Positions 1-57,403 of a stretch of 64,000 bases of DNA are shown here, piece by piece (position 1 is the first letter of the stretch; every line of letters begins with the position of its first letter). Where the stretch lies: the NCBI GenBank assembly GCA_045837725.1, contig JBEWZL010000162.1, positions 1 through 64,000 of the forward strand, in the 5' to 3' direction. This stretch comes from Vermamoeba vermiformis. Its lineage: Eukaryota. The position numbers and the translations under genes are program-made. The notes below the pieces were generated by a model. It did not search any database and was not told the origin of the DNA. It saw only the letters and a program-made list of their open reading frames with translations.

Positions 1-14
1 TTAAAACAACTTAC

Positions 15-162
15 CTTAGTGTTTCCGCATTTGGCCTGGATACGCTCGAGTAGATCCGCATAGGATATGCCGAGAGTTGCGTCAATATGATTGGCGTACT
101 AAATAAAAGGGTTAGAATATATTTGTCTTTATTAACGTTTAAATACTTACATTCAAAGCCAT
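15..162 (-). CDS. Possible N-terminus of a protein running off the left edge (MALN|YANHIDATLGISYADLLERIQAKCGNTK...)
   Basis: ATG at 162-160, intron 99-150, next exon 15-98 open in phase 0, donor at 14. No homology recognised. Confidence 0.3.
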
Positions 163-1472
163 TCTGAGGAGTGTTCGTCGCGGATGTCGGCAGCTAAACA
201 ATCGATGTAACCAGAAACGATGCTGAAAGAGCAATGTCGTTGTACTCTGTTCAGAAGGTGAGCGAATAATGAAAAAAAACAACAAAACAAATATTTATAG
301 CTAAATTTACGAACGCGCCTCGATCTGGAAAACTCGACTATTATCGACGAGTAACCAATTAATTTAACGAATAACAATAGTACTTACATGATTTTATCCT
401 TGGCACGAAGCGGTTTCGTTCCATCGCCAAGCACAAGCGAGATCTCTGTGAGGGGTGGTGTGGATCTACCACCAGCAATACCACTGGCCCTAATCGTCAC
501 ATTACTTCATTAATATAAGTAGCAGTTATTAGTTATTCGATACTTACACTTTGTTTAAACATCGCCTAGTCTCGTGTAACGGACGGATCGTGTTCCCGAC
601 GAATTGACCAATCAGCAATCGAGGCGCATTAAACTGAATAGTAATCATCAATGAATATTTAATAATACACAGCATTCGAATTCACTTACCTCTGCTCGTC
701 TTGTTTATCGGAGCGTTGATCTTGACACGCCGATCGATCCTCTTGACTTAAGCGCTATCTATTGTTACAAACAAAAATTATTTAAATTATAAAATATTGA
801 TTAACATTGTCATGTTCACTTACCGCACATTAACTCGAAGTTCTTCTCAAGTTGATCCAAAAATAGCGCGACGACCTGATCAAGCCTTCGTCTATAATAA
901 AGGTAAATTTAGCAATAATTTGTAATATACAATATCTTAATAATAATAATTTGTAAATTGATCAGGCTCGAAGCTCGATCCGAATAAATTTTGCAAACTT
1001 ATTTTAATTTATTGCCATTAATTGGGTAAAATAATATCATTGAGGCACTGCACGTATTTCCAATGATATTAATAATAATATTGTTAACGTACCAACTTGA
1101 GTGATTTGGATGTCCTCGACGAGTCGATCCAGTGCTTCAATAACGCAATATGTGCTGCTGAGAGGGCTCCAATTTGTTGTGCATCAACATTTACTTCATT
1201 ATATTACATAAAATATAATACGACCTGTTGTGGTCGTTCTGTTGGGCTGATCGGGTAAGAATGTTGATCAGATTTTCGGTCGTATTTAAAACAAACAAAA
1301 ATTACATTTATTATTACATATTACATTTCAATTCTATATTACTTGGGTGTTACGTCGACATATTGAAGTATCAGATCCGAGGCAACGTGAACGATCTGCT
1401 ATCAATTCGATCAAGTCCTGATTAAAGTCTATCAATACGTTATAATTAACATATTAAATGTTTTTTCTTTAC

Positions 1473-3620
1473 CTTTAGCGCAATCGGTGCGCTTTTTCAA
1501 GTCAGTTAGTAGGGGATCAGTGCGGGGCCCTCGCGGATCTGCGATTAACCGCCATGTATTGAGAATCTGAATGTACTTACGTTAATTTATATATACATAT
1601 ACAACTATTGATAGCAAATAGACTTACCTGAGAACGGCCAACGAATTTTCTTCTCGCGAATCCGTTCAAGTTGCGGATCGCATTTCATTATTATATCTCT
1701 TCTTTCGCTCGATCTAGTTGTATATAACGTTAGTAATTATCATTAATTAACGCGTAAAGAAACTTACATTCTTTTAAATCGCTTCTACTGCGAGGTTTGA
1801 GCCGAGTTAGATCGCGTGTACACGATCCACGATACCATTAGAAAACGCTTCAATCCTGATAAAATAGGATTAGCACGTTTAAATAAATATAAATAATCAT
1901 ATCGTCCTACCTTTGGCGCGATCGATGCGCTGTGTTGGTGAAAGACGGATCGCTTCGGACTTAGAAATTTTTCAAGTACGGGGGCCCCGCTAGGGTTCCC
2001 TGCATAAATTGAATCAGTTATCGAACCAATAATTAAAATAACACTTTAACATTATATTTAAACGAAAATAAAACTTACCAAGCATTCACCTAGCCAATTT
2101 CAGGATCGCGCATCCGCCCAAGTTGCGGATCGGATTTCATTATTATATGTCTTCACTCACTCAATCTAGTAGGATATAGCGTTATTAATTGTAACTAATA
2201 AACCCGTAAATATACTTACACACTTTTCATTGGTTACTGCCGCGAGATTTGACCCGAGTTAGATCGCATGTACACGATCCACGAAACTATTGCAAAACGC
2301 TTCAATCCTGGTAAAAATAACATTATTACGTTTAAACAAATATAGTAAATAACTTTGTCTTACCTTTTGCGCGATCGATATGCTGTGCTATCAAATTGAC
2401 GGATATCCGCGTTAATTTGAAATTTTCGAGTACGGAGGCGCCACGAGGGTCCCTGCATCAAATTAATTAATAATGATATCAAAAGTTTGAATAACAATTA
2501 AATAACTTAATAAATACCTTTTCAAGACTTACGAGATCGATCGAAAAATTCAGGGTAAGGGATCAACGCGGGGCCCTCAAGGATCGGCGACGTAAACCAA
2601 TTACTCCTGAAAATACTAATAAAAGGGTGTTAGTAAACGCATAAAAATAACAAAGGACTTAAAATAAACTTACCTTCATGCTTCCAATTTGTTTTTCTTG
2701 TCACGAATCCGGTTAAGTTGCGGATCCGCTTTCTCCGTAACGTCACCGAATTCAGTGACTCTGATGAAAAGGATTAGATTAGTATATACTAGTAATTGGT
2801 TTATGCTACTTACGGGTCTGTAATCCGTTACTAATCGATAAAAATATGCGCGTCAGATCACGCATCCGAATTCGTAAAAATGGCTTATGTGTTCTTCCTG
2901 AAGTAAAAATTATATCAGTAAGTAATTATATAATTATTTAAACGCGTTCTGCTTACTATTAGCGCGATCGATTCAAGGGATCAGCAAGGGGCCCCGCGGG
3001 GATCAACGGTAAAAGTAAACTTTAATTAATTCTACCAAAAAAAAAGGGGTTATTAAACGGTTATATAATGGTTGTTACTTACTTTAAGAGCCTTCAGAGC
3101 TCTTCAACAATACTTCAACGGATCGGGATGCGTCGGATCCCGATCCGAATTATTGCACTCAAGGGTCGCTCTGACCCTTGTCGATCTGTAATAACGTTAG
3201 CAACGATCGGTTAAACGTATTTTTCTCTTACCTTGGTTCATCAGTTAGCACTGACAAAAATTTTAACGCGCTAGATCTCGCGCCACCAAATCTACCAAAA
3301 ATTCTAACCAACGGTTCTAACAATAAATGAAGATGTGAGTTTATTACCTTTATAATGTAAAATCAATTTTACTTACTTTTGACGCAATCGATGCGCGTCA
3401 CTGAACTTACGAGAGATCGGGTTAGTTGCGTGCGCGATCTCTGGCCCCAGCTCCGTGTCATCTCCTAAACGTAAAATTGTTATCAGTGAGTTATTATATT
3501 AATATTTAAGGGGGATCACTTACGTTTAAACCAATCGATGCCCCGCAAAGAAATTTTAACCGATCGAGACTCGTCGGATCTCGATCTCGTAATTTTCCTC
3601 CGTCGTCGTCTTTGTTATTT
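1473..3620. repeat. Diverged higher-order repeat of exon+intron monomers (three exon types, unit about 450 bp)
   Basis: 1628-2000 aligns by eye with 2079-2453 (shared AAGTTGCGGATCG, GAGTTAGATCGCRTGTACACGATCCACGA, AAAACGCTTCAATCCTG, GCGCGATCGAT). More diverged copies lie at 2674-3032 and 3232-3464. Confidence 0.8.
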
Positions 3621-4519
3621 CTAGTAATATAATGGGTTAGTATTAAGCAATATTTAACTGTAACCGCACTTACCGGGCTATTATGGGTGATGTAACAGAT
3701 CTGATAACGCGAGAAGATCGCGTTCAAGATCCGTTCTCGTTAACTTTTGACGCCTAAAATAAAAGTGTTAGATTGTTAAATAACAATAAATTAACGTATT
3801 TAAATTGCTTACGCTTGAGAAATGACCGGGGATTGAGCGATCGACTTTACGATCGATATAGAAATCGCGTCTTAATACTGACGCTCAAATTACCTACAAA
3901 ATAACGATTATTATATTATGTTAATACTAAATAAAACAATACTTCAAATTTTACGCGAGCACGAAGCTCGATCCGATTCTATATAATTTTAAAAATTTAA
4001 CTTGATTTTTAAATTGATAATCGACGCATTGGGACGATTATCTTACTATTATTGAATATATTTAAAGACTTACCAATTTATTTCCAGGGCCTGGGCGGAT
4101 TCGATCTCGCCATCAAGTTACCGACCCCGTCGGCGAGCAATGGTGATCGTTCCCGCAGCGGGACACGAACGGAAGGCACCAATATACAACAATACGACCA
4201 TTGGTGGTCGGGATCTCGCGAACAGAAAGTCACTAGAACTTTCGATCGCGGTAAATAATCGTGAACATAATCTAAATAAAAATTGAAGTGTTAGCATAAT
4301 GTATTTAATATTGTTTTATCGATATTAATTATAAATCCGGATAAAATCCGAGCACTTGGCTCGATCCGGATCAAACTAATTTTAGCTTAAAAATTTAAAA
4401 ATTAAATTTGCGATAAAATAATGTTGTGAATGGTGGAAGTATATATATAAAAATCTTACCTTAATTTATCTCGGTCACTGCGCCGAGATTTGATCGCGTT
4501 TTGTTCGCGATCTTAAAGC

Positions 4520-5065
4520 CGCGCTGGAACGACGCTGATTGTCGTTTGGCGCGCATGTATAGATAATAAATAATATATCTAAATAACCAAATCGACCCTT
4601 GTGGCCGATCTGTTGCGAATCTTGGATTCGCTGCCTGTCAATCCTCTAAATAACTCGCGCTGAACGACCGTCGTGGCCGTGGCGCGCAACTATCTGCTGT
4701 TAATAAACCACGATAAATAAATATAACGACCTTTGTGGTCGTTCTGTTGAATTACTGAGGCGAAATAGCCCGTGCGCCATTTTCGCATCAGTTCTGATCT
4801 TCGAAATAACTCGCGCTGAACGGTTCTGATACCGCGGCGCGTTACTATCAGCTGTACATTACTATAATAATTGACAACAAATAAATAACTCGACCCGTGT
4901 GGTCGATCTGTCGAAGTTGATTAAAAATAGCGAATCAGATGACGCGTGCGATTTTGGCAACTCGAAATAACCCGCGCTGTAACGACGTTGGTGTCGTGGC
5001 GCGTAACTGCCCTATGTAATAATCAATAAATATATGCTTCATCAACCGTTTTGGTTGATCTCCTC
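4520..5065 (-). repeat. Four tandem units (about 135-160 bp), each with two hairpins
   Basis: CGCGCTG..GGCGCG stems start near 4520, 4656, 4812 and 4973. Each is followed by an A-rich linker and a CGACC-N5-GGTCG type hairpin plus TCTG/TCTC. Confidence 0.8.
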
Positions 5066-5727
5066 GTTTAAAAGTAAACTTACCTTCTCGATCCGTTGAC
5101 GTATTTCTAAATCTCGTTAAAATCGAACCTGTAGTGATAAATTAAATTAGTTCTATTAAAATTAAATAACACTAGACCGCGAGTAACGAGAATCTCGGTA
5201 ATCTCGCGGATTTAAGAATTGATCAGCGTTCGAATCTGACCTCGAACGCAACCAAAAATCAAACCATTTTTAAATTCGTTATTAATACATACCTTGAATA
5301 ACTTTCAGGCATTAATTTGTCAAAATTCTTCGATGATCCGTCACTCTGGCTGGACGGATCTGCGCGACGATTTCTCGACTTCTTCGGCACCGAGAATTTT
5401 TCTGCCATTTTTCCTCGTGGATAGTTGGCAGTCTGAATATTATCTAATGAATAAAAATCTGAAATGAATTTTTTAATCAAAGTTAGCGATCCGGATCCCC
5501 TCGAGGGCCCTGGGGACCCGTCGCTATTTCTGCCTTACCTCGTCGATTTTATTGGGGACCCTTACTGGCCCCAATAGCTTATTATTGGAGCTATCTCTTG
5601 GTGCTATTGCGAAATTGAATGCACCCGTTCGTGTTCAATTTCATTCAATTTGCGCCGATTTTTGCCAGATTTTTTCGGGGCCCCTCTCCGCCCCCAATTT
5701 CCGGTCTTTGGGGGCCCCTTCCTTGCT

Positions 5728-5742
5728 CCCTAACCCTAACCC
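5728..5742 (+). repeat. Telomere-like seed (CCCTAA)x2.5
   Basis: CCCTAACCCTAACCC. The equivalent AACCTTAACCTTAACCCC ends the duplicate at about 7436-7453. Confidence 0.6.
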
Positions 5743-5968
5743 ACGTGGAGACAACCCCTACAGACTTAGTTTTTTTGCAACATCGTCTCCACGCGGAGAC
5801 GACCCCTAAGGACTTAGTTTTTTCTTGAGATCGTCTCCGCGTGGAGACGACCCCTATGGACTTAGTTTTTTCTCGAGATCGTCTCCGCGTGGAGACGACC
5901 CCTATGGACTTAGTTTTTCTTGAGATCGTCTCCGCGTGGAGACGACCCCTAAGGACTTTATTTTTTCA
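5742..5968. repeat. 48-bp palindromic tandem repeat, about 4.7 copies
   Basis: GAGAC starts at 5748, 5796, 5844, 5892 and 5939. Unit junctions form TCGTCTCC-GCGT-GGAGACGA inverted repeats. Confidence 0.95.
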
Positions 5969-6032
5969 TAAGACTGTACACTGAGACTTAGTTTTTTTGA
6001 ATTCTCCAACTTACGCGGGTGGGTCCGTTTTT

Positions 6033-6092
6033 CTTAAGTAAAAATTTCCTTTAGTAAAATTTTCCTAAGTAAAAATTTTCCTAAGTAAAAAA
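6033..6092. repeat. About 15-bp tandem repeat (TAAGTAAAAATTTCC-like), about 4 copies
   Basis: Read directly from the sequence. Confidence 0.85.
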
Positions 6093-6355
6093 TCACCAAG
6101 CATAATTCCTACTCAATTCTCTATTTATTGTCAGGTTCTGCAGGGCTGGCCCTCTATGGCCAAGCCCTTTCACATATATGAATGACTTATCAGGGGGCTC
6201 CGCCCCCTGCACCCCCCTTCTTTTTTTTCTTTTTCCCTTCCTTAGCGAGTCTCGCTCGGGATCAATAATGGACCCTCCTGTATTTAGTATAATATCAATG
6301 TTTATTAGTGATAGGAATTGTATCCCTAATGCCTAACATGTCATTTAGGTCATAT

Positions 6356-7453
6356 TAAATAACTCACGCTGTACGGCCGTCGTGGCCATGGTGCGTGACT
6401 ATCTGCTGTTAATAAGCCACGATAAATAAATATAACGACCTTTGTGGTCGTTCTGTTGAATTACTGACGTGAAATAGCCCGTGCGCCATTTTCACATCAG
6501 TTCTGATCTTCGAAATAACTCGTGCTGAACGGCTCTGATACCGGGTTGCGTTACTATCAGCTGTACATGACTATAATAATGATAGCAAATAAATAACTCG
6601 ACCCTTGTGGTCGATCTGTCAAAGTTCTTTAAAAATAGCTTTTCAGATGACACGTGTGATTTTGACAACTCGAAATAACCCACGCTGTAACGACTTTGGT
6701 GTTGTGGGGTGTAACTGTCCTATGTAATAAACAATAAATAAATTCATAATTGACCGTTTTGGTCGATCTCCTCGATTAAAACTAAACATACCTGCTCGAT
6801 CCGTTGACTTTCGGATAAATCTCGTTAAAATTAAGCCTTTAGTGGTAAATTAAATTAGTACTATTAAAATTAATTACCGATTGACCGCAAGCAATGAGAA
6901 TCTCGTTATTCTTGCAGATTTAAAAATCAATCAGCGTTCGAATCTAACCTCAAACGCAATCGAATAATAAAATTCTTAAATAAATATACCTATTACGTAA
7001 CTGATATCACCTCCAGCAGGTTATTTTCAAATAATTCTTCAAAGATCCGTCATTCTGATCTGATGGATCTACGCGACGTTTTCTATTATACAACGTGTTA
7101 TTGAATTTTTTTACTATTTTTCCTCGTACGTACCTGGCACTGTCTTTCATAATAAACAAAATTTACTCGATACCCAGTCCTTGGTCACGATCTCAGATCT
7201 TGGGCGTCACTTGTGCCCCCAAGGGATCCGCGCTATTTCTCCGTTACACTTCACGGGATCCACGGGGACCCAAATATAATTTAATTAGCCCTATATATGG
7301 GCTATCATTTCCAGTTTATTCGAAATTGAAAACGGTTCGTGTCTGTTATTTCTGTTCAATTTCATTCCAAATTTCACGGACAAATTTTGGGTGTCAAATT
7401 TTCTGGTTTCCCATACATTTGACGCCCTCCCGTAAAACCTTAACCTTAACCCC
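6356..7453. repeat. Direct duplicate of 4647-5742, with CpG decay
   Basis: Colinear by eye from TAAATAACTC to the telomere-like seed, with many CG>TG/CA differences. Confidence 0.92.
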
Positions 7454-7762
7454 AAAGGTATATTAGTCTGCCCCCGTGACCTGCTGGTCACACTTCTGTC
7501 TGTGGCCCTGTAAGATTGGCCTTGCCTAGCAGCTGGGTTGTAGCTGCAAAAACAAAGCAAAATTTAAGGATATATGGGTTTTTTTATTTGCCCTAAGACC
7601 CCTAAGCCCTAAAAGGCTATATAATAAATAAAGAGAGGTGGGTGTTGTTTAGAAGTAAAGCTTGATTTATTGGGTTTAATTACAATCATATGTATACCTG
7701 CACTTCGTGCAAGGATCGGAATAATTCCCATGACGTGTCACAAAGGCATGTGATGAGAATTA

Positions 7763-8188
7763 GACAAGAATATTCCGCTGACGAAGAAATCATCAGTGTT
7801 ACACTTGGTCGATTTGCGATTCAAGTCCAATTCACAGTGGGACTTTGCACATTTTCTTCTGCACACAATAACAACTGGCTTCTTGCAGTCTGGTGATGTT
7901 CTTGTTGTGGACAATGCTTGCATCCACTTTGGTGAGCAAACAGCCTCAATGACCTCACGATTGACCCAAGCTCTCAACATTCACATTCTACACTTACCAT
8001 CTTAAAGTTGCAAGTTGAACCCCTGCAAGTTGGTGTTCAACTATATTAAAGGGCTCATTTGGCGCAATTGGGAATATTCCCAACCATTTTGTATGGAGCT
8101 CATGATCTCCCTTGTGGAGGTAAATCTCCTTCACCTCTATAAGTGGTACAATAAATGTTTAACTGTATTATCGAAGGAAAAAAAATAA
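7763..8188 (+). pseudogene. IS630/Tc1-mariner DDE transposase relic (C-terminal part)
   Basis: GDVLVVDNACIH...ILHLPS*SCKLNPCKLVFNYIK matches the DDE_3 consensus (DNAxxH...LPxYSPELNPIE). There is an in-frame TAA at 8003 and the catalytic E reads K. Confidence 0.88.
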
Positions 8189-8289
8189 TAAAGATGTTGA
8201 TTTAAAAGATAATTTTTCTTTTTTCCTTTTGTTTTGATTGCAACTTGTAATAGCAATCAATATGTATTTATTTGACCTAGTCCTCTCTT

Positions 8290-10811
8290 TTACAAATAGC
8301 ATACAAAAACCACAAGCAGCAAGAAAGTCAGACTGTTGAGAGTCAAAGCACCAGACACAATGCTTTGATTTTGAGTGTTTGTTGTGGGGACAGCTACTGG
8401 TGGATTGCCAAATTGAGGAGCATCAATCTGAGGAGCAGAGCCAACGTCAGGAGTGGAATCAGCAAAAGGAGAGGCTACTGGAGAGGCCACTGGTGGTGCA
8501 ACAGGACCTGCAACAGGTGGGCTCACTAATGAACATTAGTGAATTTGATTCTCAAAATAAAGTCACATCACATACTGCACGATGCGTTGGGACAGAAACC
8601 ACTTTGACAATCGCTGTCTCTGTGGCAAACTTGGTTGAGGGCGCACTTAGTTGCACAACTGCCACCACAATCGATATCGGATTCATCTTGGTTTAGTATG
8701 CCATCAACACAACTGTATTCTAAGAATTTTGAAGTTAGGATATTTCTTGGCAATAGCAGAATATATACGTACGGCACTTGGTGTCTGTGCAGTTTTTGCT
8801 CAAGCAATCGGTGTCATATAAACAATTTTGCCCCACCGCGCAGTCGCTGCAGGAACCGCCACAATCAATGTCCGTCTCGTCTTGGTTCAAATAGCCGTCC
8901 GAGCACGAAGGAGTCGCTGAAGCAATTGTTAGAACTATGCTTGGTTGTATAATTGAGTGTACTTACAGCATTTGTTGTCGGGATTGCAGTACTCGCTCGT
9001 ACAGTCACTTCCAAGCAAGCAGCTCTTGCCGTTAACGCATGCCGAGCACGTCGCACCGCCACAATCAATGTCGGTCTCGTCTTGATTCTTCACTCCATCA
9101 GAACAACTGATCACTACAAGCACAATCAGCTTGATGTCGGACACTGGAGTCAGTTATAACTTACCGCACTTGTTGCCGGAGCATTTATTACTCGCACAGT
9201 CACCATTGATTGAGCAAGTATTGCCAATGCTGCACTTGGAGCAAGAGCCTCCACAGTCGGTATCAGTTTCATCTCCGTTCTTGAACGTATCGGAGCAGCT
9301 TGGCGCGGCTACGAGCCATATTAGGAAGGGTGATAATTTCGATTTTCTTTGTACGTACCACACTTATTTGTATTGGGATTACAGAAGCCACTTGTACAGT
9401 CGGTGTGAGCGCTGCAAGTCTTGGCATTGGCGCACTTGGAACACGTGCCACCACCACAATCTACATCAGTCTCTACTTGGTTTTTGAAGCCGTCAGAGCA
9501 ACTCGGAGTAGCTGTTAGATGCAAGATTGTTAATAACTATGCACGAGCCGTACATCATCTTGATACTTACAGCAAGTCTTGTTAGGATTGCAGTAGTCGC
9601 TATAGCAATCAGCAAGCACGGCGCAGATCTTGCCATCATCGCATTTATTGCACAATGTGCCTCCGCAGTCGATGTCAGTCTCGTCTTGGTTCTTGCCAGA
9701 GTCATCGCAGCTCGGATTTGGTGAGAAAGCGAGATACGCTGATGCAGTACCATCACCAGAAATAATATCTCTTCTCTCAGTAAATCCGCTGCCGCTATCA
9801 GTGTAGCGATAGATCCAACCATCAGTCGTCAGTACGAAGACATAGACCACGGTGCCAAATTGCCTCGCGATGACCGAACGCGAAGAGAAAGTATCAACGC
9901 CAGTTGCATAAATATCGGTAAAACCGTTTGCGCTTGCCTCCATCTTTGCCACTTTGCCTGCCCCTGCACCGTACCAAATGGTGGAGGAGAAAGCTGTAAC
10001 TGCAGTGTAAGGAACGGAGGACCCGTAAGGATAGTCGGCGCTGTAAACTTTCGGAGGTGAGGGCATGGACCAGAAGGCGAAGCCAGATTGCGCCTTGCAA
10101 GTAAAGAACGTGTTACCGACTATTTGTACGTATTGAATGTTGGTTCTCGAGGAGACGCTAGGAGTAATCAATGATGTCGCCCCACGAGTCGTGTATCCAA
10201 CTGTGCCGTCATATCCAAGCCATATATCTTGTCCATTATGCACTGCGAAGTAAAAGTTGGCATCTTGATTGCTGAAATCGGTGATCTTGGTGCGATCCAC
10301 AATTGCGCCGTTCGCGTTCACGGTCAATGCAACTCGCGGCATTCCAGATGTGGAGGCAAGGCCAGGATCACCTTCTAAGACACCAATAGCTAACATACTA
10401 CCCGCGTAGTCGAGCATAATTTTGTGCACGTTTTGTTTTGAATAAACGTACCTAAAAAAGACGGATTTAGAAACAAAATCTTTTTCAATTTAATAATTGC
10501 ATGCAAATTACAAAAAGGATGGCAATTAACACTGTATATAATTTAAGTATTACGGAGAGGAAATCAAAAGTATCGTTGGAATCGGAATAAATCACTAAGT
10601 CTTTGTTAACGGATGGATTGATAACTTACCCACCCAGAGTAATTGTTTGAAGGAGAAGTCCATCATATCGGTACTCTTTCAATACGACGGTAGATGTCTG
10701 AGAGGTAGTGGATCCCTCAGTTCCCAAGAGGATGATAGAATCCTTTTTAAACGCACCAGCTTGCGCTTGGTAAGCCAGTAAGGCAATAGTCGCGAGTAAT
10801 AGCAGTTTCAT
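8290..10811 (-). CDS. Secreted, probably GPI-anchored surface protein with six Cys-rich CxDxxxNxxExDxDCGG repeats
   Basis: Signal peptide MKLLLLATIALLAYQAQA, a beta-rich N-domain, six repeats separated by introns, a Pro-rich stalk and a hydrophobic C-terminal tail. Confidence 0.88.
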
Positions 10812-11841
10812 CGCTCTGGCTTTGTAAAGTCAAACGGTAAATAATAATGGTTTCGAAAAATGCAATCTTTAATACTTACTATTTTTAGGCAATTTACAAC
10901 GTTCAAATAAAATTACTCTAACCAAATCTAAAAGTATTTTCAATTAAATTTAACCCGTATACCAAGTCAACAATCGGTATCCGATTTGGATCGAGCATTT
11001 CAAAGACTTGCGTGTTGGTACACTGTTGTGCACTTCGAAAGTTAATTTTAGCGGCGTCATAATTATCAATAATAATTGTATAGTCGGCTGATACTCCGGC
11101 AGACAAGATTTCGGAAGTTAAAGTCTTTGAAATGCGATCGATCCAGCACGTGGTTAGGTCGTATACTTATGTAATTAAGTAGCGGGCATTTTTATGTAAG
11201 TGGCTTATAACGTACCCTAATATGCAGCATTCGCGCGAATCTCAGCTTCTGTTGATACAAGCGATAAACACTCATCCATACTTATGGTTCGGGGTAGGAT
11301 CAAGGACTAGATGCCTTCTAGGGTTAACTGTTGCGCAGCGGGCAGTTTTTAACGCGCTTGGCAACAAAGAGGGCGAAACTCAATGCAATTAACGTCCTTG
11401 CCGCAAAGCTTGAGGTTACTAATTATAATTTACTTATTTTATATTACCATATGCCGTACCTATCGCCGTTAATATCGCCAAGATGGCTGTTTCCGCTTGT
11501 AGAGGCTACTGAGCAAGAACTCATTTGGTCATCCTGATCGTTTCTTTTCAATAATATTTTAATTTTAGACTCAATTAATTTAATTTAGCACGATCTTAGA
11601 CTCAATTAAGTGCATTTTAAATTAATGTTGAAAAGTTTAAATACTCTATCTTACCTCATCTCGATCAACCGTTTAATTAAAATCGTTGGTGGTTCACCGA
11701 GGCTAGGATTTGGTATACATTCGCTATTACTAACAATATTGCAGTACTAGGGCATTACCGTGGTGTATGGTAATTCGTTAACAAGGCGAAGTAAAATAAA
11801 ATCATCAATCATTTTCTTTGTTTTCGAACGTAATTGCACAA

Positions 11842-19800: not shown

Positions 19801-22594
19801 CCGTGAAAAGATCTACGTTCGCGACATTCAATGCTACGACGAATTCTACCTCACTTGTCGATCCAATGACAAACGCGTTCGTTCTTGGAGGTGGCTTTGC
19901 AGCCTTTCAGCCATCATACGTAGTTTCAGATGGACCTGCGTTTAGCATTTACACTACCCGCGAGGACGAGCCGGTCTTGTTACGCTTAGATGCTAGTTCC
20001 CTACTGTTCTCCTCTGTTGCGCGTGTCATTACAACCTTGCCACAGGTAATATGTCCTTCGTTTGTTTTCCATGAGCTAACCGTCGTGTTTAGAAAGGAGT
20101 ATTGTATCAAGTAGCTGAGGATGGCACGTTCTTGTTCGACAAACCAATTAGTGACCCGTACTTGTCGTGGGACGTGCGATATCCAATCGAGCAATGGGTC
20201 TCCAATGTATTGAACTTTAGTTCGTTCAATGGTGAATACTTGAACTCGAGTTATAGTCCTTTTAAGTTGATTGGAAGACCCAGCTGGTACGACTCGCCCA
20301 ACCCTCCATATGGTGACAACGTCAATTCATGGGCGCCTGAGTGGCCTTGTGTCAATCAGACTGCGGATGACTGGATTGATTTGGAGTACGAGACGGCTGT
20401 CTTCGTGTATTCCATCGAAGTGTGCGAAAACTTGAATCCTGGAATGGTCACCTCGCTCTCAGCATTCAACTTGGACAGTGGCGTATGGAGTGTAAGTGAC
20501 TAAGCAGTGCTAGCACGAGCGAGAGCTAATTATTTCTGCAGACGTTGTGGCAAGGACAAGCTACGGTTCAAGCTCCTTCAGTCACGATATGGGCGCCTTC
20601 GATCTGCGAGCCTTTGTTCCCTACAAATCGCATTCGGATGACGTTGAATGCGTGCACCTCTCCTGGTCCTGCTCAGATTGCTGGTGTGAAATTGATCGGC
20701 AGTGTGGACCCTCGACGAGGAGTGCTGACTAACGATGAAGGCTACGTGCTGTACGTTCCTTATCCACACGTGTACACTACAGACGGCGATACTTTCCAGT
20801 ACAAATCCATCGATTGCCCGTTCGATCGCAATCGCGAGTCATTGGCTGTGAACAGGACAAGTAAGTCGAAGCTAACCCGCTACCATACCGGCCCTTATTA
20901 ATACCTTTCCCAGTCATCATTACTCCACGAAACAATATGCCCTTAGCACTGGCTCAGAATGTGTCGTTGAATGAAAGCTTTTCCGTTGTGGTTCAATTGA
21001 CGCACGAGGACATTGATGGAGACACAGTGACGTATTTGATCAACACATTACCCGCCAATGGCTGGCTGACTCAAGTGGATGAAAAAGACAACAATATCGA
21101 TGAGATGACCGCGCCTGGCCTGTTGACCAATAGCAAAGGTCGCGTTAGGTACACGCCGCCAAAGGACACGTGTGGCATGGGCCTCGATGTGTTTACCTTC
21201 AACGTCAGTGACAAAGAGCTGACATCACCGGCAGCGATAATCACGCTCAATGTGTATTGCTTGCCTGGTGCGCACATTGTATCTGATGTGCTGTTCTACG
21301 TGTTCTTTGCCATTGCTATCTTGCTGGCCGTTATCTCGATTGGCTTTATCGTGGTTGTCGGTGTGCTCAAGGACAAACAGGTACGTGTGCACCATTATCC
21401 TGAGTGCGTGAGTTCTAACACCTTGCTCGTTACAGGAGTTCAGAATTGCAAGCCCGATGCTGTTGATAATCATGTTGGTCGGCTTCGTGTTGTGCCTGGC
21501 CTCGGTGTACTTCTTCGCTGGACCACTCACTGAGGCGTTCTGTCACTTGCGCGTATGGTTGCTCAGCTTAGGATTTGCATTGATCATAGGGTACGTTAAT
21601 AAGAGCTGTGGTTTAATAACATACTAACGTGATTCGTAGCTCGATGTTTGTGAAGACGTATCGCATCTGGCGTATCTTCTGCAACAAAACACTGAAGCGA
21701 AGGCAGCTTAGTGATCGATGGCTACTGTTCATTTTAGTAGCTTTCATTTGCGTGGATATCGTAAGTACAGCTTAATGCTACTCAACGGCGCTAACAAGCG
21801 TATTCAGGGTGTATTGATCGTGTTCAGTCTCGTTGGGAATAGCACCGTCGAGTCGTACCCATCGCTCGCAAATCCCGCGGCAACGGTGCAGTCATGCAAA
21901 TTCAACTACATCATCTTCTACTCGCTCTTCGGCTACAAGGTACATATTTACTTAAAAACAATAGTCAACGTAACTAATCGTTACCAGGGCTTGCTACTGC
22001 TGTTCACCGTGTTCTTGTGCTTCATGATTTGGAACGTCAAGCCTGCCATGCCAGACTTCACGGCACTGTCAGTGGCTGTCTTCACATTCGCGGTGTGTGG
22101 TCTCATATTGATCCCAATCATGTTGATCATCACCGAGGGCGATCCAAATCCAACAGCGGTGTTCTTAGGACCAGCTTTGGCTACCATAGTGCCAATAGCG
22201 ATCACACTAGCCGTAGTGTTCATTCCTAAGACGAAAGAAGTGTACAAGAATCGCAACAAGCAAAGTGACATGGAGTTCAACTTGCAGATCAACACGACGA
22301 ACACCGTGACGACTGTCAGCAAGCAGACCAATACCTCGACAGACTTTGACGACCCTGCGGAGAATAAGAGGTAATGATCTCAGTGAAGCTAATAGTTTTG
22401 TACTAATGTTGTCCATTAGTGTTATTGAGCTATTAGAAACGATTAAACAAAAAGACGATCAAATTGAACGGTTGAAGAACATCCTGGCCAAAAAGAAGTA
22501 CAAGATCCGTTCCCTGAAACAACGACTGATCGAAGCGAAACAAAATCAAGAGCCGCCTAGTAGAAGTAATATGCAAAGTAGTGAACACTCGTAA
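16834..22594 (+). CDS. Family-C (GABA-B/Grl-like) GPCR with a large LamG/pentraxin, discoidin-like and Ig-like ectodomain
   Basis: Signal peptide; LamG-like motifs (TIEFWLK, FQGMIDELRVW, WTHVAAT, FAGRMDEVRIW); 7tm_3 motifs (FRIASP, CHLRVWLLSLGF, FVKTYRIWRIF, FIPK); C-terminal coiled coil. Confidence 0.85.
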
Positions 22595-52498: not shown

Positions 52499-53780
52499 TT
52501 ACTTTCGGTCTATTACTGGGCCAAGTAAGTATAAATTTTTGAAGGTCTTCAACTTGGCCAAATCGTTGACTATCAAAGGAGTGCAGTTGCCGTAGACCTG
52601 AAATCTCGTCAAATTCTTCAGAGCTAACAATATTGGCTCAATATCATCGATAGCTGTCGGATTATTGACTCCAATGTAAGGAAACGACAAGTCCAAATCT
52701 GTCAAGTTACTTAATTTGGAAATTGGGCTGAGAGATTGTTTGTGCTCCATTGAAGAAATCGTTAATTGTTGCAATGCGTGAGTGTTAATATTGTCAAGGA
52801 GTGTATCATATGAATACGAAGTTACTGTAGCACTTGATAATACTAATGATGACAGCTGTTGCAATCGCCTCAGATCCAGACTTTGATGGACTTCATTAAG
52901 CCCAAATAGCGTCAACTTTTGCAAGTTTGTTAATTGTTCTATATCTCTAATATTTGACTTTTGTGTTGAATAGCAGCTGAGATACAAACAAGTCAAGTTT
53001 TGCACCATATTTTCGAAAAACGAGATTTCAGTATTAGTGTGCAAGGATTCCAAATTAGGCAATGGTGCATCAATATGAGCTAACATTGAATAATGTCCGT
53101 CATTTGCAGCCGATGTGCAAGCGTAAATTTTCAGCACTCGTAAGCTCGATAACGCTGCGAAATAATTTGGCGGTATCTTTGTGATCCGATCTATCGTCAA
53201 TCTCGTGAGTCGATATGAATCGCTTAATATAGGAAGCGTATCTTCGGCTTTAATAACTTTGAAATTTGCAGTTTCCAAAGAAGGCAAGCTTAACGGAGCC
53301 TCTCCAGAATCTTCTTCAGAATAATGATCTTTCAATGTAAATACTGCAGCGGTTATACTCTTCAATTTTGTCAATCTATTAAGGGTCTTTGTGGATATCA
53401 TATGAACTTCTAATTGTTCCAAGTTTGTTAATGCTGAAATGAACGTTGGATCACGACCATCCGTCAGACCTTGATGTCCAATCCTCAATGACGTTAAACT
53501 TGATAATTTCGAGATAGGTTCGTATTGATGTGTCCTTATCGTGTCAATAGAGGCACATGCAAAGTTAAATCCAAACGGCTTCGTGTATTTTGAAAACGAA
53601 TCCGCGATCTCGCTCATCTGGCGACCATAAATCAATCCAAATTTAAAATCTGTTATATTGATCCAATTCATCAATCGCTTGCATACACATCGCATGCAAA
53701 ACCTCCATTTTGACTCGGGTAAATAGGAAAAAATTAAATCCGTCAATTCTGGAGGTAGATCGAGTAAGAAATCGCCGTCC
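52499..53780 (-). CDS. F-box/LRR protein; the start exon appears defective
   Basis: DLPPELTDLIFSYL followed by LRRs. The upstream mini-exon reads ATG TAA at 53846. Confidence 0.75.
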
Positions 53781-55593: not shown

Positions 55594-57403
55594 TTAGTAG
55601 TGAGTATTAATATGACTGTTAAATATTCTCAACTTACATAATTTAAATGTATGCAATTGCGATAATTTTGTTAAATTATCGTGCCACGTTGAATTCGGTA
55701 AGAAGACTGTTTTCAAATTCTTCAATGCCGTCAATTCTAATAGTGCTTCAGGCTGTTCTAATGGGACTATACGTAGTTCGAATGACTCTAATGAGGTCAT
55801 ATGACTTAAATCACTCCAATTTTGTAACGGCATTTCTAATGACAGGCGTGTGAGGTATTTCAAGTCTTCTTTGTTGTAGTTGAAATTATTCGCATTAATT
55901 TTCAACGATTCCAGTGCACTTATGCCGCGAATGTCCAAGTCGTTGGATAGGCTAACAACTTCCAAGCTGTTCAAATGCTTCAAACACTTCAATTCTTCCA
56001 GTCCTTCTGATATTTTGCCAGTGCGATTGATGATAGACAACGTTCGTAAAGAATTTCCTAATTTAGAAATTCCGTTGATGGTGATATTAAGAGACCCTGG
56101 AGATCCTCCGCCAATAAGAACGACAAGCCGTGTTAAATTCGTTAATGTCATTATTGGCGATAAATCTACAGAATACTTCGCTACGCCCGTTGTACTGAAT
56201 GATATATCCAAATTCATCACATTACTATATTTGGAAATTGGTGAAACTGATTGATCCTGATCCAAATTTTGTACTGTCAATTCCTTCAATTTATCGATAC
56301 CGACGCTTCCTAAAGTTGTATCGAATGAAAATACGTGTTTAAGTTGTTTAAATAGGTGAAGTGATGAAAGCTGCTTTAATCTGCTGAGATCCAGATCGTG
56401 ATTGACTTCTCGCAATTTTAGTACTCGCAAATTTGTTAATTGTTCTACATCCTTAAAGTACATCAATGTGCTATTCTTTACGTAGGTATTTGGATTGATT
56501 TCTAAGTACGTCAATTTGAGCATTGTATCGAAAAATGTAAGATCAGTATTTGTCGTCAATGATTCTAAACTTGGTAATGGTCTATCAAGTTTGAATAACA
56601 TCGAGTAAGCGTAATTATAATTTTCGGTAAAATAGTAAATTTTTTGTGCGTTGATCTGGAGTGTCTTCAAGTTTGTAAACTGATCCAAATATATTTTGTT
56701 GAATATTCTTGTATCGATACAGCGATAAATGCGTCAATCTAGACCCATCGCTTACTAATGGAGGTAGATCATCCGCATTGATTGCGTGAAAGCTTGCAGA
56801 TTCCAAAAAAGGCAGATTCAGCTTGATCTCTTCGTCCAAAATCTGTTCGTCCGCATAATAGTCTTTGATTATGAATACGCCCGTTGCAAGCTTCTTAAGA
56901 TTCGTTAATGATGTTATAGTTGCTGTAGATACCATATGAATGTCCAGTTGTTCCAAGTTCGTCATAGTTGAAAGAAAAGTTGGATCTTTACCATCCGACA
57001 CGGCTTGATTTTTGTTCGCAATTATCAATGAAGTTAAGTTTGACAATGCTGTTAATGGCGCATATTGATCGGTTCTAATAGTATGAATCGAAGCTTTGGC
57101 AAAATTTAAGCCGAATGAAGTTTGGTATTTTGAAAACGACTCTGTGATCTCGTTCAGCTCGTGACCAAATACCAATCCAAGTGTAAAATCAGTAATATTG
57201 ACCCAGTTCAACCATTTTTTGCAAACTCTTCGCATGTAAAATTTCCATTTTGAATGGGACAGGTAAGAAAATATTAAATCCGTTAATTCGGGCGGCAGAT
57301 CGAACAAGAAATCGTGTTCCTGTTAAATAAACACATATTAATTTAATTAATTTATTTGCAAATTAATTATAAGGCTGCTACGAACCTTGTCAAACTTTTC
57401 CAT
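55594..57403 (-). pseudogene. F-box/LRR paralog with a +1 frameshift near 56690
   Basis: Start exon MEKFDK. Two overlapping ORFs together match the 52499 paralog, and there is no intron at the junction. This could be an assembly error. Confidence 0.65.

Follow-up and report, generated by a model that had tools for sequence, protein, structure and literature searches.

The question posed by the left-hand end of the window (the window being the whole stretch of 64,000 nucleotides analysed here, from contig JBEWZL010000162.1 of Vermamoeba vermiformis) is what is made from a region so densely set with splice signals on one strand: a protein, an RNA, or nothing of consequence. The answer reached below is that region 1-5565 is very probably a true spliced transcription unit of the minus strand, without coding content, part of which has grown by tandem duplication. 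What such a unit might be for is a more difficult matter, and several explanations must be weighed. The features concerned are collected in Table 1.

Table 1 Features of the array and its right-hand flank (strand "." where none is assigned)
Feature	Position	Strand	Basis and remarks
Non-coding multi-exon transcription unit (very probable)	1..5565	-	Donor counts, exon-intron parse, no ORF path, no Pfam family, RNA contigs ~735-4771
Intron missing from X9 contig	760..823	-	Joint 759>849; 23 diverged letters in place of 824-848
Block of ~450 bp (three exons, three introns) long ago amplified in tandem	1390..3732	-	BLAST, nhmmer
Intron, 54 nt, removed in RNA contig	1714..1767	-	Joint 1713>1768, CT..AC ends, side 86
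Intron, 55 nt, removed in RNA contig	1855..1909	-	Joint 1854>1910, CT..AC; cut may lie 1 nt rightward
Intron, 59 nt, removed in RNA contig	3465..3523	-	Joint 3465>3525 (reported 1 nt off), skips 59
Intron, 53 nt, removed in two RNA contigs	3621..3673	-	Joints 3620>3674 (CT..AC) and 3594>3674
Long intron with conserved hairpin module 3956-3991	3897..4073	-	Exact boundaries predicted; removed in paralogue RNA reads
Long intron with second hairpin module 4349-4384	4274..4459	-	X9 loose end at 4460
Three units of 134-164 bp, no consensus donors	4567..5028	-	Two conserved hairpins per unit, GTTATTT after each hairpin
1.1 kb block, copy 1 (right-hand array end)	4647..5740	.	Stops at CCCTAACCCTAACCC tract, 5726-5740
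48 bp tandem repeat, 4.7 copies, with 20 nt palindrome	5744..5967	.	Just past telomere-like tract; upstream in minus-strand sense
1.1 kb block, copy 2	6356..7452	.	Same orientation; without sequence left of the 160 bp units; ends in CCTTAACCTTAACCCC

Donors, period and coding capacity

The dense minus-strand GTAAG donors claimed in the first-pass annotation of this DNA are readily confirmed: CTTAC (i.e. GTAAG on the minus strand) occurs 29 times in 1-5600, as against three occurrences of plus-strand GTAAG. Counted by tile, there are 23 minus-strand GTAAG in the first 4 kb and 1-9 in each of the other 15 tiles, while within 1-5480 there are 27 CTTAC and 21 ACTTAC where 6.5 and 3.2, respectively, would be expected from the remainder of the window. 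The intron opened by the donor at position 14 runs past the window's left edge, so that the array is cut there and the 3' end of the unit lies outside. In all, 27 introns could be parsed (median 58 nt; GC 0.19-0.36, except for one at 0.50), separated by short exons mostly of 75-103 nt and GC 0.40-0.53; the regular array described earlier is real, although the parsed introns fall short of the roughly 30 exon + intron units given for it. GTAAG opens 24 of the 27 introns and GTAAGT 17 of them, the corresponding figures for 88 predicted coding-gene introns being 36% and 24%, but such strong donors could alternatively have their source in recent duplication from one consensus-bearing unit.

The spacing of CTTAC and the autocorrelation of GC content, both of which the first-pass annotation had put forward as checks, bear out the regularity: 16 of 28 donor-to-donor distances fall at 126-169 bp, and over 1-4100 the GC autocorrelation is highest at lag 140 (0.44), with a further maximum at lag 282 (0.36), as compared with maxima of 0.01-0.38 at lags 100-200 in 13 other tiles. 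This 140 bp period is simply that of an exon (~85) plus an intron (~55) at the normal intron size of this genome, for which the median of ordinary introns is 57.5 nt. Two segments, 4560-5060 and ~900-1560, show the GC/AT alternation without consensus donors.

As to coding capacity, the best stop-free splice path through the array extends for 503 nt, which is the level of other non-coding strands (302-623 nt) and not that of real genes (1010-2246 nt). An open frame is present in 12 of 21 exons, as against 10.9 +/- 2.1 in shuffles, the other nine being closed in all frames, and the exons do not have lengths in multiples of three. The specific observations made earlier, of closed exons and of an immediate stop at one junction, were both reproduced: none of the three frames is open in exon 1768-1855 or in exon 2079-2165, and the sole open frame of exon 1911-1999 meets a stop one codon past the junction. 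No Pfam family was found in six read-through frames of 1-5480, nor is there a reverse transcriptase ORF in any frame of 1-5480 or any other visible element gene (the 5' part of an element would lie beyond the window). The claim that the array is non-coding is supported. A processed or decayed protein gene finds no support, given that there is no residual protein similarity, that the open-frame count equals that of shuffles, and that the exon lengths do not keep frame.

RNA evidence and the conservation of splice sites

Evidence at the RNA level was drawn from two sources: the RNA-derived contigs of a public run (X9, which bears the label "RNA?" and the name of another organism) and the raw RNA reads of a second study (X11 and X12); the library of X10-X12 looks unstranded. 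As a control, X9 skips seven introns of the neighbouring protein gene (8138-10943), from which it differs at just 1-7 positions per 144-478 nt piece, showing that the run contains RNA from this organism or a very close relative. Over the array, X9 contigs span ~735-4771 at a depth of 0.5-3, with zero coverage of 4772-6606, and they are without five predicted introns (Table 1), three of the joints having clean CT..AC ends (GT..AG on the minus strand). Splicing of the minus strand, as originally claimed, is thus found at predicted sites (e.g. 1713>1768 and 3620>3674).

There are, nevertheless, limits to what these data say of this exact locus. Identity to the locus is only 90-95% for some X9 contigs and for almost every X10-X12 read, so that part of the RNA evidence must come from paralogues, and at several RNA joints the sequence between the flanks is marked as not known. 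The 759>849 joint is read here as splicing within a slightly diverged copy; the joint 3594>3674 carries 27 diverged letters, and for intron 1855-1909 the donor present in the window is a weakened GTAGGA. A joint 3871>4085 with 32 letters between, found in four reads of X11 and seven of X12, belongs to a paralogous copy and spans the first of the two long introns, and X10-X12 reads match the hairpin modules in a paralogous arrangement. The loose end of X9 beside the second long intron appears to resemble 4243-4272.

Further evidence comes from the tandem block. Its best pair of copies, 1654-2105 and 2106-2560, shows 77% identity by BLAST, and nhmmer finds further matches at 1390-1495 (E 3e-8), 2702-2974 (3e-7), 3225-3411 (3e-4) and 3615-3732 (0.03); the donor, branch and acceptor columns are still present even in those copies visible to nhmmer alone. 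Between the two best copies, donor and acceptor positions are identical in 26 of 27 cases, as against 312 of 424 positions elsewhere (P = 0.0034), while their exons are 78% identical and their introns 67% (P = 0.023). Since the duplication, therefore, splice sites have been kept better than introns, as have, to a lesser degree, the GC- and CpG-rich hairpin exons, and the view that splice signals persist in diverged repeats is upheld.

Beyond the block such relationships fade. Local alignments of unit against unit give high scores in three duplicated-block pairs only, all others lying at noise; TRF reported no tandem array in 1-5480, and a metagenome scan found no relatives. The proposal of a "satellite built from introns" is accordingly not supported, as most units fail to align and the introns are not a repeated family. 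Satellite DNA in the ordinary sense likewise finds no support, there being no homogeneous head-to-tail monomers (none by TRF, and one 77% BLAST pair) and the period being structural rather than sequence-based.

Hairpins and the repeat-capped end

The GC blocks had also been described as palindrome-rich, and this too proves correct. Perfect hairpins with a stem of at least 6 number 23 in the array, as compared with a mean of 4.6 (maximum 10) in 30 dinucleotide shuffles and 0-7 in ten other tiles, so that short perfect hairpins are enriched roughly fivefold. The palindromes CGATCG and GGGCCC exceed composition expectation by 15x and 17x, and the first 4 kb contain 58 GATC sites, as against 14-34 in other tiles. 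The folding energy of whole exons departs only moderately from expectation (mean z -1.09, versus -0.04 for 24 coding control tiles). Among individual elements, the motif CGACC-loop-GGTCG has ten copies listed across 1207-6779, a hairpin module occurs in two copies, each inside a long intron (Table 1), and the hairpins of 4567-5028 comprise 19 predicted pairs with compensatory changes in four of them.

The right-hand end of the array is itself duplicated. The two copies are collinear, with 82.7% identity over 779 bp (BLAST), and their homology stops exactly after CC(C/T)TAACC(C/T)TAACCC, the degenerate repeat copy that closes copy 2 lying at 7438-7453; a DDE_3 transposase relic adjoins them. 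That both copies end at CCCTAA-type repeats beside this relic suggests a telomere-associated repeat family, of which the array may or may not be a member with about equal probability. The 15 nt CCCTAA tract, which is called telomere-type here by its sequence, is when taken alone weak evidence of a telomere link, six matches with at most two mismatches occurring in the window where 2.6 would be expected. That the 48 bp repeat might act as a promoter is only a guess.

In copy 2, GC is giving way to AT (C>T 26 and G>A 22, versus T>C 10 and A>G 12). The CpG observed/expected ratio reaches 1.83 within the array, as against 1.17 for the remainder of the window and 0.56 for the neighbouring 7128-8137, where the transposase relic lies. 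The CpG excess of the array, together with the GC-to-AT drift of the shortened copy 2, argues that the array is not a decaying relic.

Competing explanations and known parallels

The explanation preferred here, tentatively and with somewhat less than even confidence, is that of a spliced, hairpin-rich non-coding RNA from a multi-copy element capped by telomere-type repeats. It is rather unlikely that the array is instead, as the first-pass annotation also suggested, a non-coding leader (5' UTR) laden with introns, belonging to a protein or mobile-element gene whose coding exons lie left of position 1, downstream on the minus strand: the unit does leave the window through the intron opened at 14, and spliced RNA continues leftwards, but at least 25 exons with stops and short ORFs in every frame would make scanning very hard and invite nonsense-mediated decay, and we know of no leader of such size. 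Less probable again is a neutral relic, that is, an old internally duplicated multi-exon gene that has lost its frame and is transcribed and spliced by inertia. The array structure did arise through tandem duplication, and genes in which each short exon carries one repeat do exist in this genome (in the neighbouring gene, introns of 50-53 nt separate five exons of 144-153 nt). However, a coding ancestry would leave the fivefold hairpin enrichment unexplained, and it sits poorly with the lack of residual protein similarity, with exons no more open than shuffles and of lengths not divisible by three, with donors nearer consensus than those of working genes, with splice positions conserved at P = 0.003, and with a CpG excess where the nearby transposase relic is depleted.

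Were the array a nucleosome-phased or centromere-type satellite, its transcription and splicing would be by-products. In favour of this one could cite the regular 140 bp period and the enriched dyad symmetries, but the units are not homogenised (a single block pair aligns well and most scores are at noise), the period is accounted for by exon plus intron at normal intron size, and 140 bp is below every nucleosome repeat length known to us; this is highly improbable. A small-RNA precursor, in which exonic hairpins or sense/antisense pairs are diced and splicing merely matures the precursor, is very unlikely, if less so than a satellite. Most stems are of 6-11 bp, which is too short for known Dicer substrates, and a search of 1-8200 for known RNA families gave nothing miRNA-like or otherwise beyond chance miRNA-like matches on the 48 bp palindromic repeat. 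In its favour are the 23 perfect short hairpins, the conserved hairpins with some compensatory changes, X10-X12 reads on both mate orientations (though from a library that looks unstranded), and the link of HeT-A antisense RNAs to rasiRNAs in one report (PMC2615633).

On the preferred explanation of a spliced non-coding RNA, the unit would be contained in a multi-copy repeated element with its right-hand end capped by telomere-type repeats; RNA would start near that end and then run outward through the long non-coding part of the element. Every AT-rich block would be opened by a strong U1 site, and spliceosome loading might allow RNA polymerase II to make and stabilise a full-length RNA from a template of hairpins and AT tracts. 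The spliced hairpin-rich RNA, or its transcription or splicing, would then work in cis on the element or its chromatin, perhaps by supplying small-RNA control or by preventing methylation of the region. This specific mechanism (U1 sites, spliceosome loading, action of the RNA in cis) is possible, but doubtful.

The first-pass annotation held that the array has no described equivalent, which is too strong. The closest parallel is with the antisense RNAs of HeT-A and TART, the telomeric retrotransposons of Drosophila. According to two reports (PMC2615633; PMC5537684) these RNAs are non-coding, contain multiple introns whose splice sites fit the consensus well, begin close to the 3' end (for HeT-A, in the 3' UTR) of an element whose non-coding 3' region is unusually long, and are transcribed toward the upstream neighbour, from polymorphic, multi-copy elements at chromosome ends. 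The differences are that neither a gag/pol gene nor a poly(A) tail is visible here (the element's 5' part being outside the window), that CCCTAA-type repeats rather than oligo(A) close the array, that 27 introns follow one another at a regular 140 bp pitch where those RNAs have a few, and that the host is a microbial eukaryote and not an insect. Whether the array RNA is antisense to an element depends on the orientation of the element, itself unproven.

Endonuclease-deficient Penelope-like elements (Athena, Terminons), which can retain introns, are described in PMC6431247 as leaving 5'-truncated copies that share one orientation and are separated by other DNA. Here copy 2, consisting of the last 1.1 kb only, is such a copy, and the homology ends at CCCTAACCCTAACCC and its degenerate copy, candidates for the short reverse-complement telomeric repeats that close those elements. 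Unlike in those elements, there is no hammerhead upstream of the array repeats (none in 1-8200 at E up to 5 or at gathering score, and no CTGATGA by eye in 5560-5740), no RT is seen in the window, and the introns lie on the strand opposite to the one ending in CCCTAA.

The LL2R tandem-repeat RNA of chicken lampbrush chromosomes is also a non-coding repeat array transcribed from a single strand as one unit, with dense donor splice sites on a strand depleted in polyadenylation signals (AATAAA at the array locus: 5 minus, 20 plus), and it recruits splicing factors; according to that preprint (bioRxiv 10.64898/2026.03.19.712899) its donors outnumber its acceptors threefold and it is spliced only poorly, whereas in the array donors, branch sites and acceptors are paired and introns are removed. 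Introners, as covered in PMC9860276, resemble the array in their many short introns with strong signals, their nucleosome-like spacing and their occurrence in an aquatic microbial eukaryote, but form near-identical families in coding genes, where the array introns differ from one another and their host RNA is non-coding. Introner elements were rejected on that account, alignments rising above noise only within the duplicated block.

Host genes of snoRNAs of the GAS5/UHG type likewise give spliced RNAs of many exons that have no meaningful ORF and for which splicing matters above exon sequence. In the array, by contrast, most introns (median 58 nt) seem too short to hold a snoRNA, and exons are better conserved than introns; a snoRNA host gene was rejected, no snoRNA family matching in 1-8200 and the hairpin modules of the long introns having no C/D or H/ACA boxes by eye.

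TERRA has not, to our knowledge, been described as a 27-intron RNA, and the subtelomeric position of the array locus is only putative. If a telomere lies at the left, the array RNA would share with TERRA and subtelomeric transcripts, as far as PMC7374410 describes them, an origin in subtelomeric repeats, a course toward the chromosome end, and the TTAGGG-reading strand.

Splice sites, exons and coding capacity of the array

The first-pass annotation had described the left-hand end of the window (1-5480) as about 30 exon+intron units of nucleosome-scale period, with GC-rich and AT-rich blocks in alternation and a minus-strand donor in nearly every AT-rich block, and this description is confirmed by donor counts, donor spacing, autocorrelation and an intron-exon parse. 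The first 4 kb contain CTTAC on the forward strand (GTAAG as read on the minus strand) 23 times, as against 1-9 times per tile in the other 15 tiles, and GTAAG on the forward strand occurs only 3 times in 1-5600; 16 of the 28 donor-to-donor distances lie within 126-169 bp, and the autocorrelation of GC content, which had been proposed as a check, peaks at lags 140 (0.44) and 282 (0.36), above all 13 control tiles. The parse yields 27 introns of median length 58 nt, separated by exons that are mostly 75-103 nt long and have GC contents of 0.40-0.53; the introns of the first parse have, with one exception, GC contents of 0.19-0.36. In two stretches, 4560-5060 and approximately 900-1560, the alternation is retained and consensus donors are absent.

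The match to the donor consensus is closer in the array (GTAAG in 24/27 and GTAAGT in 17/27 introns) than in coding genes, where the corresponding figures are 36% and 24% for the 88 introns predicted in the window by a splice-aware dynamic programme. These 88 introns have a median length of 57.5 nt, and internal exons one of 176 nt; their number and short median length imply a genome in which introns are numerous and very short.

As regards coding capacity, a splice-path programme (donor GT[AG][ATC]G, then any AG acceptor 40-160 nt on) gave a longest stop-free path of 503 nt in 5 exons on the minus strand of the array, where non-coding strands in the other tiles give 302-623 nt and real genes 1010-2246 nt, so that the long reading frame with protein homologues that was named at first pass as the sign of an ordinary or decayed gene was not found; Pfam searches with the six read-through frames at E up to 1 likewise gave no family. 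Of the 21 short exons, 12 are open in one frame or more (10.9 +/- 2.1 for shuffled exons) and 9 are closed in all three, and the earlier statements about individual exons, namely closed frames and a stop after a junction, hold. An alternative genetic code was ruled out, since the genes nearby have open frames when read with the standard code.

The array was, at least in part, built by tandem duplication, and its splice sites are conserved. A block of three exons and three introns is present in two adjacent copies (see the table), and an HMM made from both of these finds older copies elsewhere in the array. When all six copies are aligned, few columns persist, those of donor, branch and acceptor among them; between the best block copies 26/27 donor and acceptor positions are identical, as against 312/424 positions elsewhere (Fisher P = 0.0034), and exons are 78% identical as against 67% for introns (P = 0.023).

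The array is also rich in small palindromic elements, having 23 perfect hairpins with a stem of at least 6 (4.6 in shuffles, 0-7 in other tiles) and GATC-centred and GGGCCC palindromes at 6-17 times expectation. The folding energy of whole exons is only moderately low (mean z -1.09, as against -0.04 for controls), and the structure signal is one of short local hairpins rather than global folds. The units of 134-164 bp at 4567-5028, in which consensus donors are absent, share two hairpins with their copies at 6410-6736, with compensatory changes in 4/19 pairs. In the hairpin that the block copies share, the stems are out of register, and beyond the 134-164 bp units compensatory changes are single examples found by eye. 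A metagenome scan with the conserved hairpin motif returned 41 loci, each with one match and with no BLAST similarity to 1-8000, and these are chance hits.

Two further observations may be recorded here. A small conserved hairpin module (CGAGC-loop-GCTCG, then ATCCG), for which comparison with known RNA families gave no match, lies within the three longest of the AT-rich blocks or introns, once in each. The signal AATAAA occurs 20 times on the forward strand of 1-5480, the minus strand having 5 (background approximately 4.5), so that the transcribed strand is spared polyadenylation signals and the opposite strand is loaded with them; the forward-strand excess is probably a by-product of the T-rich 3' ends of the minus-strand introns, and because this is the simplest explanation the bias was not counted as evidence.

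Features of the array and its surroundings (window positions)
Feature	Position	Strand	Remarks
Intron skipped in X9	760-823	minus	slightly diverged copy
Intron skipped in X9	1714-1767	minus	CT..AC ends
Intron skipped in X9	1855-1909	minus	CT..AC ends
Intron skipped in X9	3465-3523	minus	within 1 nt
Intron skipped in X9	3621-3673	minus	CT..AC ends
Duplicated block	1654-2105; 2106-2560		about 450 bp; 77% identical
Older block copies	1390-1495; 2702-2974; 3225-3411; perhaps 3615-3732		HMM matches
Hairpin module	961-980; 3956-3991; 4349-4384		CGAGC-loop-GCTCG, then ATCCG
Shared block, copy 1	4647-5740		right-hand end of array
Shared block, copy 2	6356-7452		same orientation as copy 1
48 bp tandem repeat	5744-5967		4.7 copies, 89% matches; begins 3 nt past telomere-like tract
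16 bp repeat TTTTCCTAAGTAAAAA	6029-6091		4 copies; CCTAAG piece present again
DDE_3 transposase relic	7840-8055	plus	in-frame stop; E 3.7e-6, 27.3 bits (Pfam cut-off 28.6)

Transcription and splicing

Four runs were aligned to 1-11000, the neighbouring protein gene at 8138-10943 (minus strand) being included as a control: X9, which comprises the contigs of a public run that is presumably RNA and bears the label of another organism, and X10-X12, which are raw RNA reads (X11 and X12 from another study). On the control gene X9 skips seven introns and shows 1-7 differences per piece of 144-478 nt, from which it follows that X9 contains spliced RNA of this organism or of a very close relative. On the array it skips predicted introns (see the table), spliced RNA being what the first-pass annotation had looked to for a decision, and the exon borders suggested there (1768-1856, with the next exon from 1911) match its junctions. 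A loose end at 4460 in the RNA alignment suggests that 4274-4459 is also removed as an intron. In 4 reads of X11 and 7 of X12, position 3871 is joined to 4085 through 32 diverged letters, which we read as a paralogue from which the long intron 3897-4073 has been removed by splicing.

It must be remembered that X10-X12 contribute just 38-61 reads on 11 kb, nearly all of them partial, and are weakly informative for the exact locus, that RNA depth over the array is low (0.5-3, with no coverage across 4772-6606), and that several of the RNA joints carry the mark 'between: not known'. Part of the RNA evidence comes from paralogues, as some contigs are 90-95% alike; reads of X10-X12 match the hairpin modules in a paralogous arrangement, implying that the family is multi-copy and expressed. 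Back-splicing was considered for one joint marked 'goes back 428' and ruled out, as its ends lie mid-exon with 13 extra letters; in our reading this read is collinear with a paralogue's exon 3083-3185, which also argues against back-splicing. The array thus gives rise to a spliced, non-coding, minus-strand RNA, and the earlier view that it is spliced and non-coding, with constrained splice sites, finds support in the shortness of its longest open path, the X9 joints and the conserved splice positions.

The repeated block and its telomere-type repeats

The array belongs to a block that is repeated and whose copies stop at telomere-type repeats. Its right-hand 1.1 kb recurs as copy 2 (82.7% identity over the best 779 bp), the homology running up to and including CCCTAACCCTAACCC (copy 1) and CCTTAACCTTAACCCC (copy 2) and no further, and copy 2 is without everything to the left of the shared block. 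Telomerase RNA, suggested by the template-like CCCTAACCCTAACCC, was ruled out, as the copy homology ends at this tract rather than spanning it. Between and beyond the copies lie the 48 bp repeat, the 16 bp repeat and the DDE_3 relic. Each 48 bp unit holds a 20 nt palindrome, TCGTCTCC(G/A)CG(T/C)GGAGACGA, and a CCCTAAGG-like piece, and the repeat might serve to bind protein or as the promoter of the minus-strand RNA. At gathering score Rfam gave no family in the window, and a search of 1-8200 with E up to 5 added nothing but chance hits, for the most part of miRNA models on this palindromic repeat; a tRNA scan of the window found none. CCCTAAG-like motifs recur at approximately 7590-7615.

The changes in copy 2 are mainly C>T and G>A (48, as against 22 in the reverse direction). 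The ratio of observed to expected CpG falls from 1.83 for the array to 0.56 for the relic stretch (7128-8137), the window outside the array having 1.17, so that the array does not show the decay of the dead transposon next to it. Over the approximately 1 kb around the relic the strong CpG depletion is accompanied by an excess of TpG/CpA, a hint that dead transposons in this genome decay by a methylation-driven or RIP-like process. We infer that a telomere-associated repeated element has this block as its long non-coding end, and that the RNA runs outward from that end.

HeT-A, and likewise TART, produce non-coding multi-intron antisense RNAs that start in the 3' UTR (PMC2615633; PMC5537684). 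These are the closest documented case, and given such RNAs in print the earlier remark that no equivalent had been described was overstated. A literature search, which was not exhaustive, found no description of a comparably regular multi-intron non-coding array. Endonuclease-deficient Penelope-like elements share with the array 5'-truncated copies, and have terminal reverse-complement telomeric repeats to which the telomere-type tracts of the block may correspond (PMC6431247); the hammerhead that defines them was not found in 1-8200 and no RT is visible, and the locus is therefore not assigned to them. In chicken, a repeat RNA in which donors are dense recruits splicing factors (bioRxiv 10.64898/2026.03.19.712899), and so shows that the splicing machinery can be the route by which repeat RNAs rich in splice sites act, although that RNA is poorly spliced and the array RNA is spliced.

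Why the introns are kept

U1 can suppress premature polyadenylation, and in fungi stalled spliceosomes can trigger RNAi. As a best guess, the full-length RNA would be made and stabilised only if a strong U1 site preceded every AT-rich block, and efficient splicing would keep the repeat transcript clear of surveillance pathways. A bolder proposal, which we consider decidedly unlikely, is that the product that matters is dense co-transcriptional spliceosome loading rather than RNA sequence, the array being a dedicated splicing platform that supplies some 27 or more selected consensus U1/spliceosome sites at a pitch of 140 bp along a hairpin-rich RNA running outward from telomere-type repeats. 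Such loading might mark a family of subtelomeric repeats and protect it from CpG decay or silencing of the kind seen in the relic, or alternatively might set a chromatin boundary; if true, this would be a new, undescribed class of spliced TERRA-oriented RNA.

Other explanations must be weighed against these. The array, whose transcription unit is cut by the window's left edge, might be the leader of a gene lying further left, which seems unlikely. That it is a neutral relic of a duplicated gene is a poor prospect, to be read beside both the block duplication and the persistence of splice positions within it; were the array no more than a leader or a relic, it would be a curiosity of an intron-rich genome. 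A small-RNA precursor, a reading to be set beside the short local hairpins, is a long shot. A nucleosome-phased satellite, raised at first pass, is highly improbable: the 140 bp period is there, but a homogeneous satellite is contradicted by TRF, which finds no tandem array in 1-5480, and by unit-against-unit alignments, which score well for three pairs only, all from one duplication.

Non-coding RNAs whose splice sites are kept while exon sequence drifts are rare test cases for splicing itself as the selected function, be it through U1 binding, exon-junction marking or escape from surveillance. Here 27 consensus-grade introns in 5.5 kb, with measurable conservation of splice position, are combined with a CpG excess relative to the decayed transposon alongside and with a link to telomere-type repeats. 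If the family is telomere-associated, multi-intron antisense or outward transcripts, so far a matter of Drosophila HeT-A/TART, would extend well beyond insects, and the array would offer a compact system for relating donor mutation to RNA stability, small RNAs and chromatin.

The window is eukaryotic, and the standard code gives it PPR, class-C GPCR, FAD-oxidoreductase and F-box/LRR reading frames. At 20865-22374 (plus strand) a class-C GPCR 7TM region follows Ig/cadherin-like domains of bacterial type, and at 52499-53779 and 55594-57322 (both minus strand) lie two F-box plus LRR paralogues, intronless over 1.1-1.3 kb; these genes are ordinary context. The control gene, for which poly(A) reads end at approximately 8213, encodes a secreted-looking protein in which a cysteine-rich unit of 48 residues (CSDG.KNQDETDIDCGG.C) is repeated, and Pfam gave no family for its N-terminal part and repeats. 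With one exon of 144-153 nt per repeat, introns of 50-53 nt and a period of approximately 195 bp, it is itself a regular exon-intron array.
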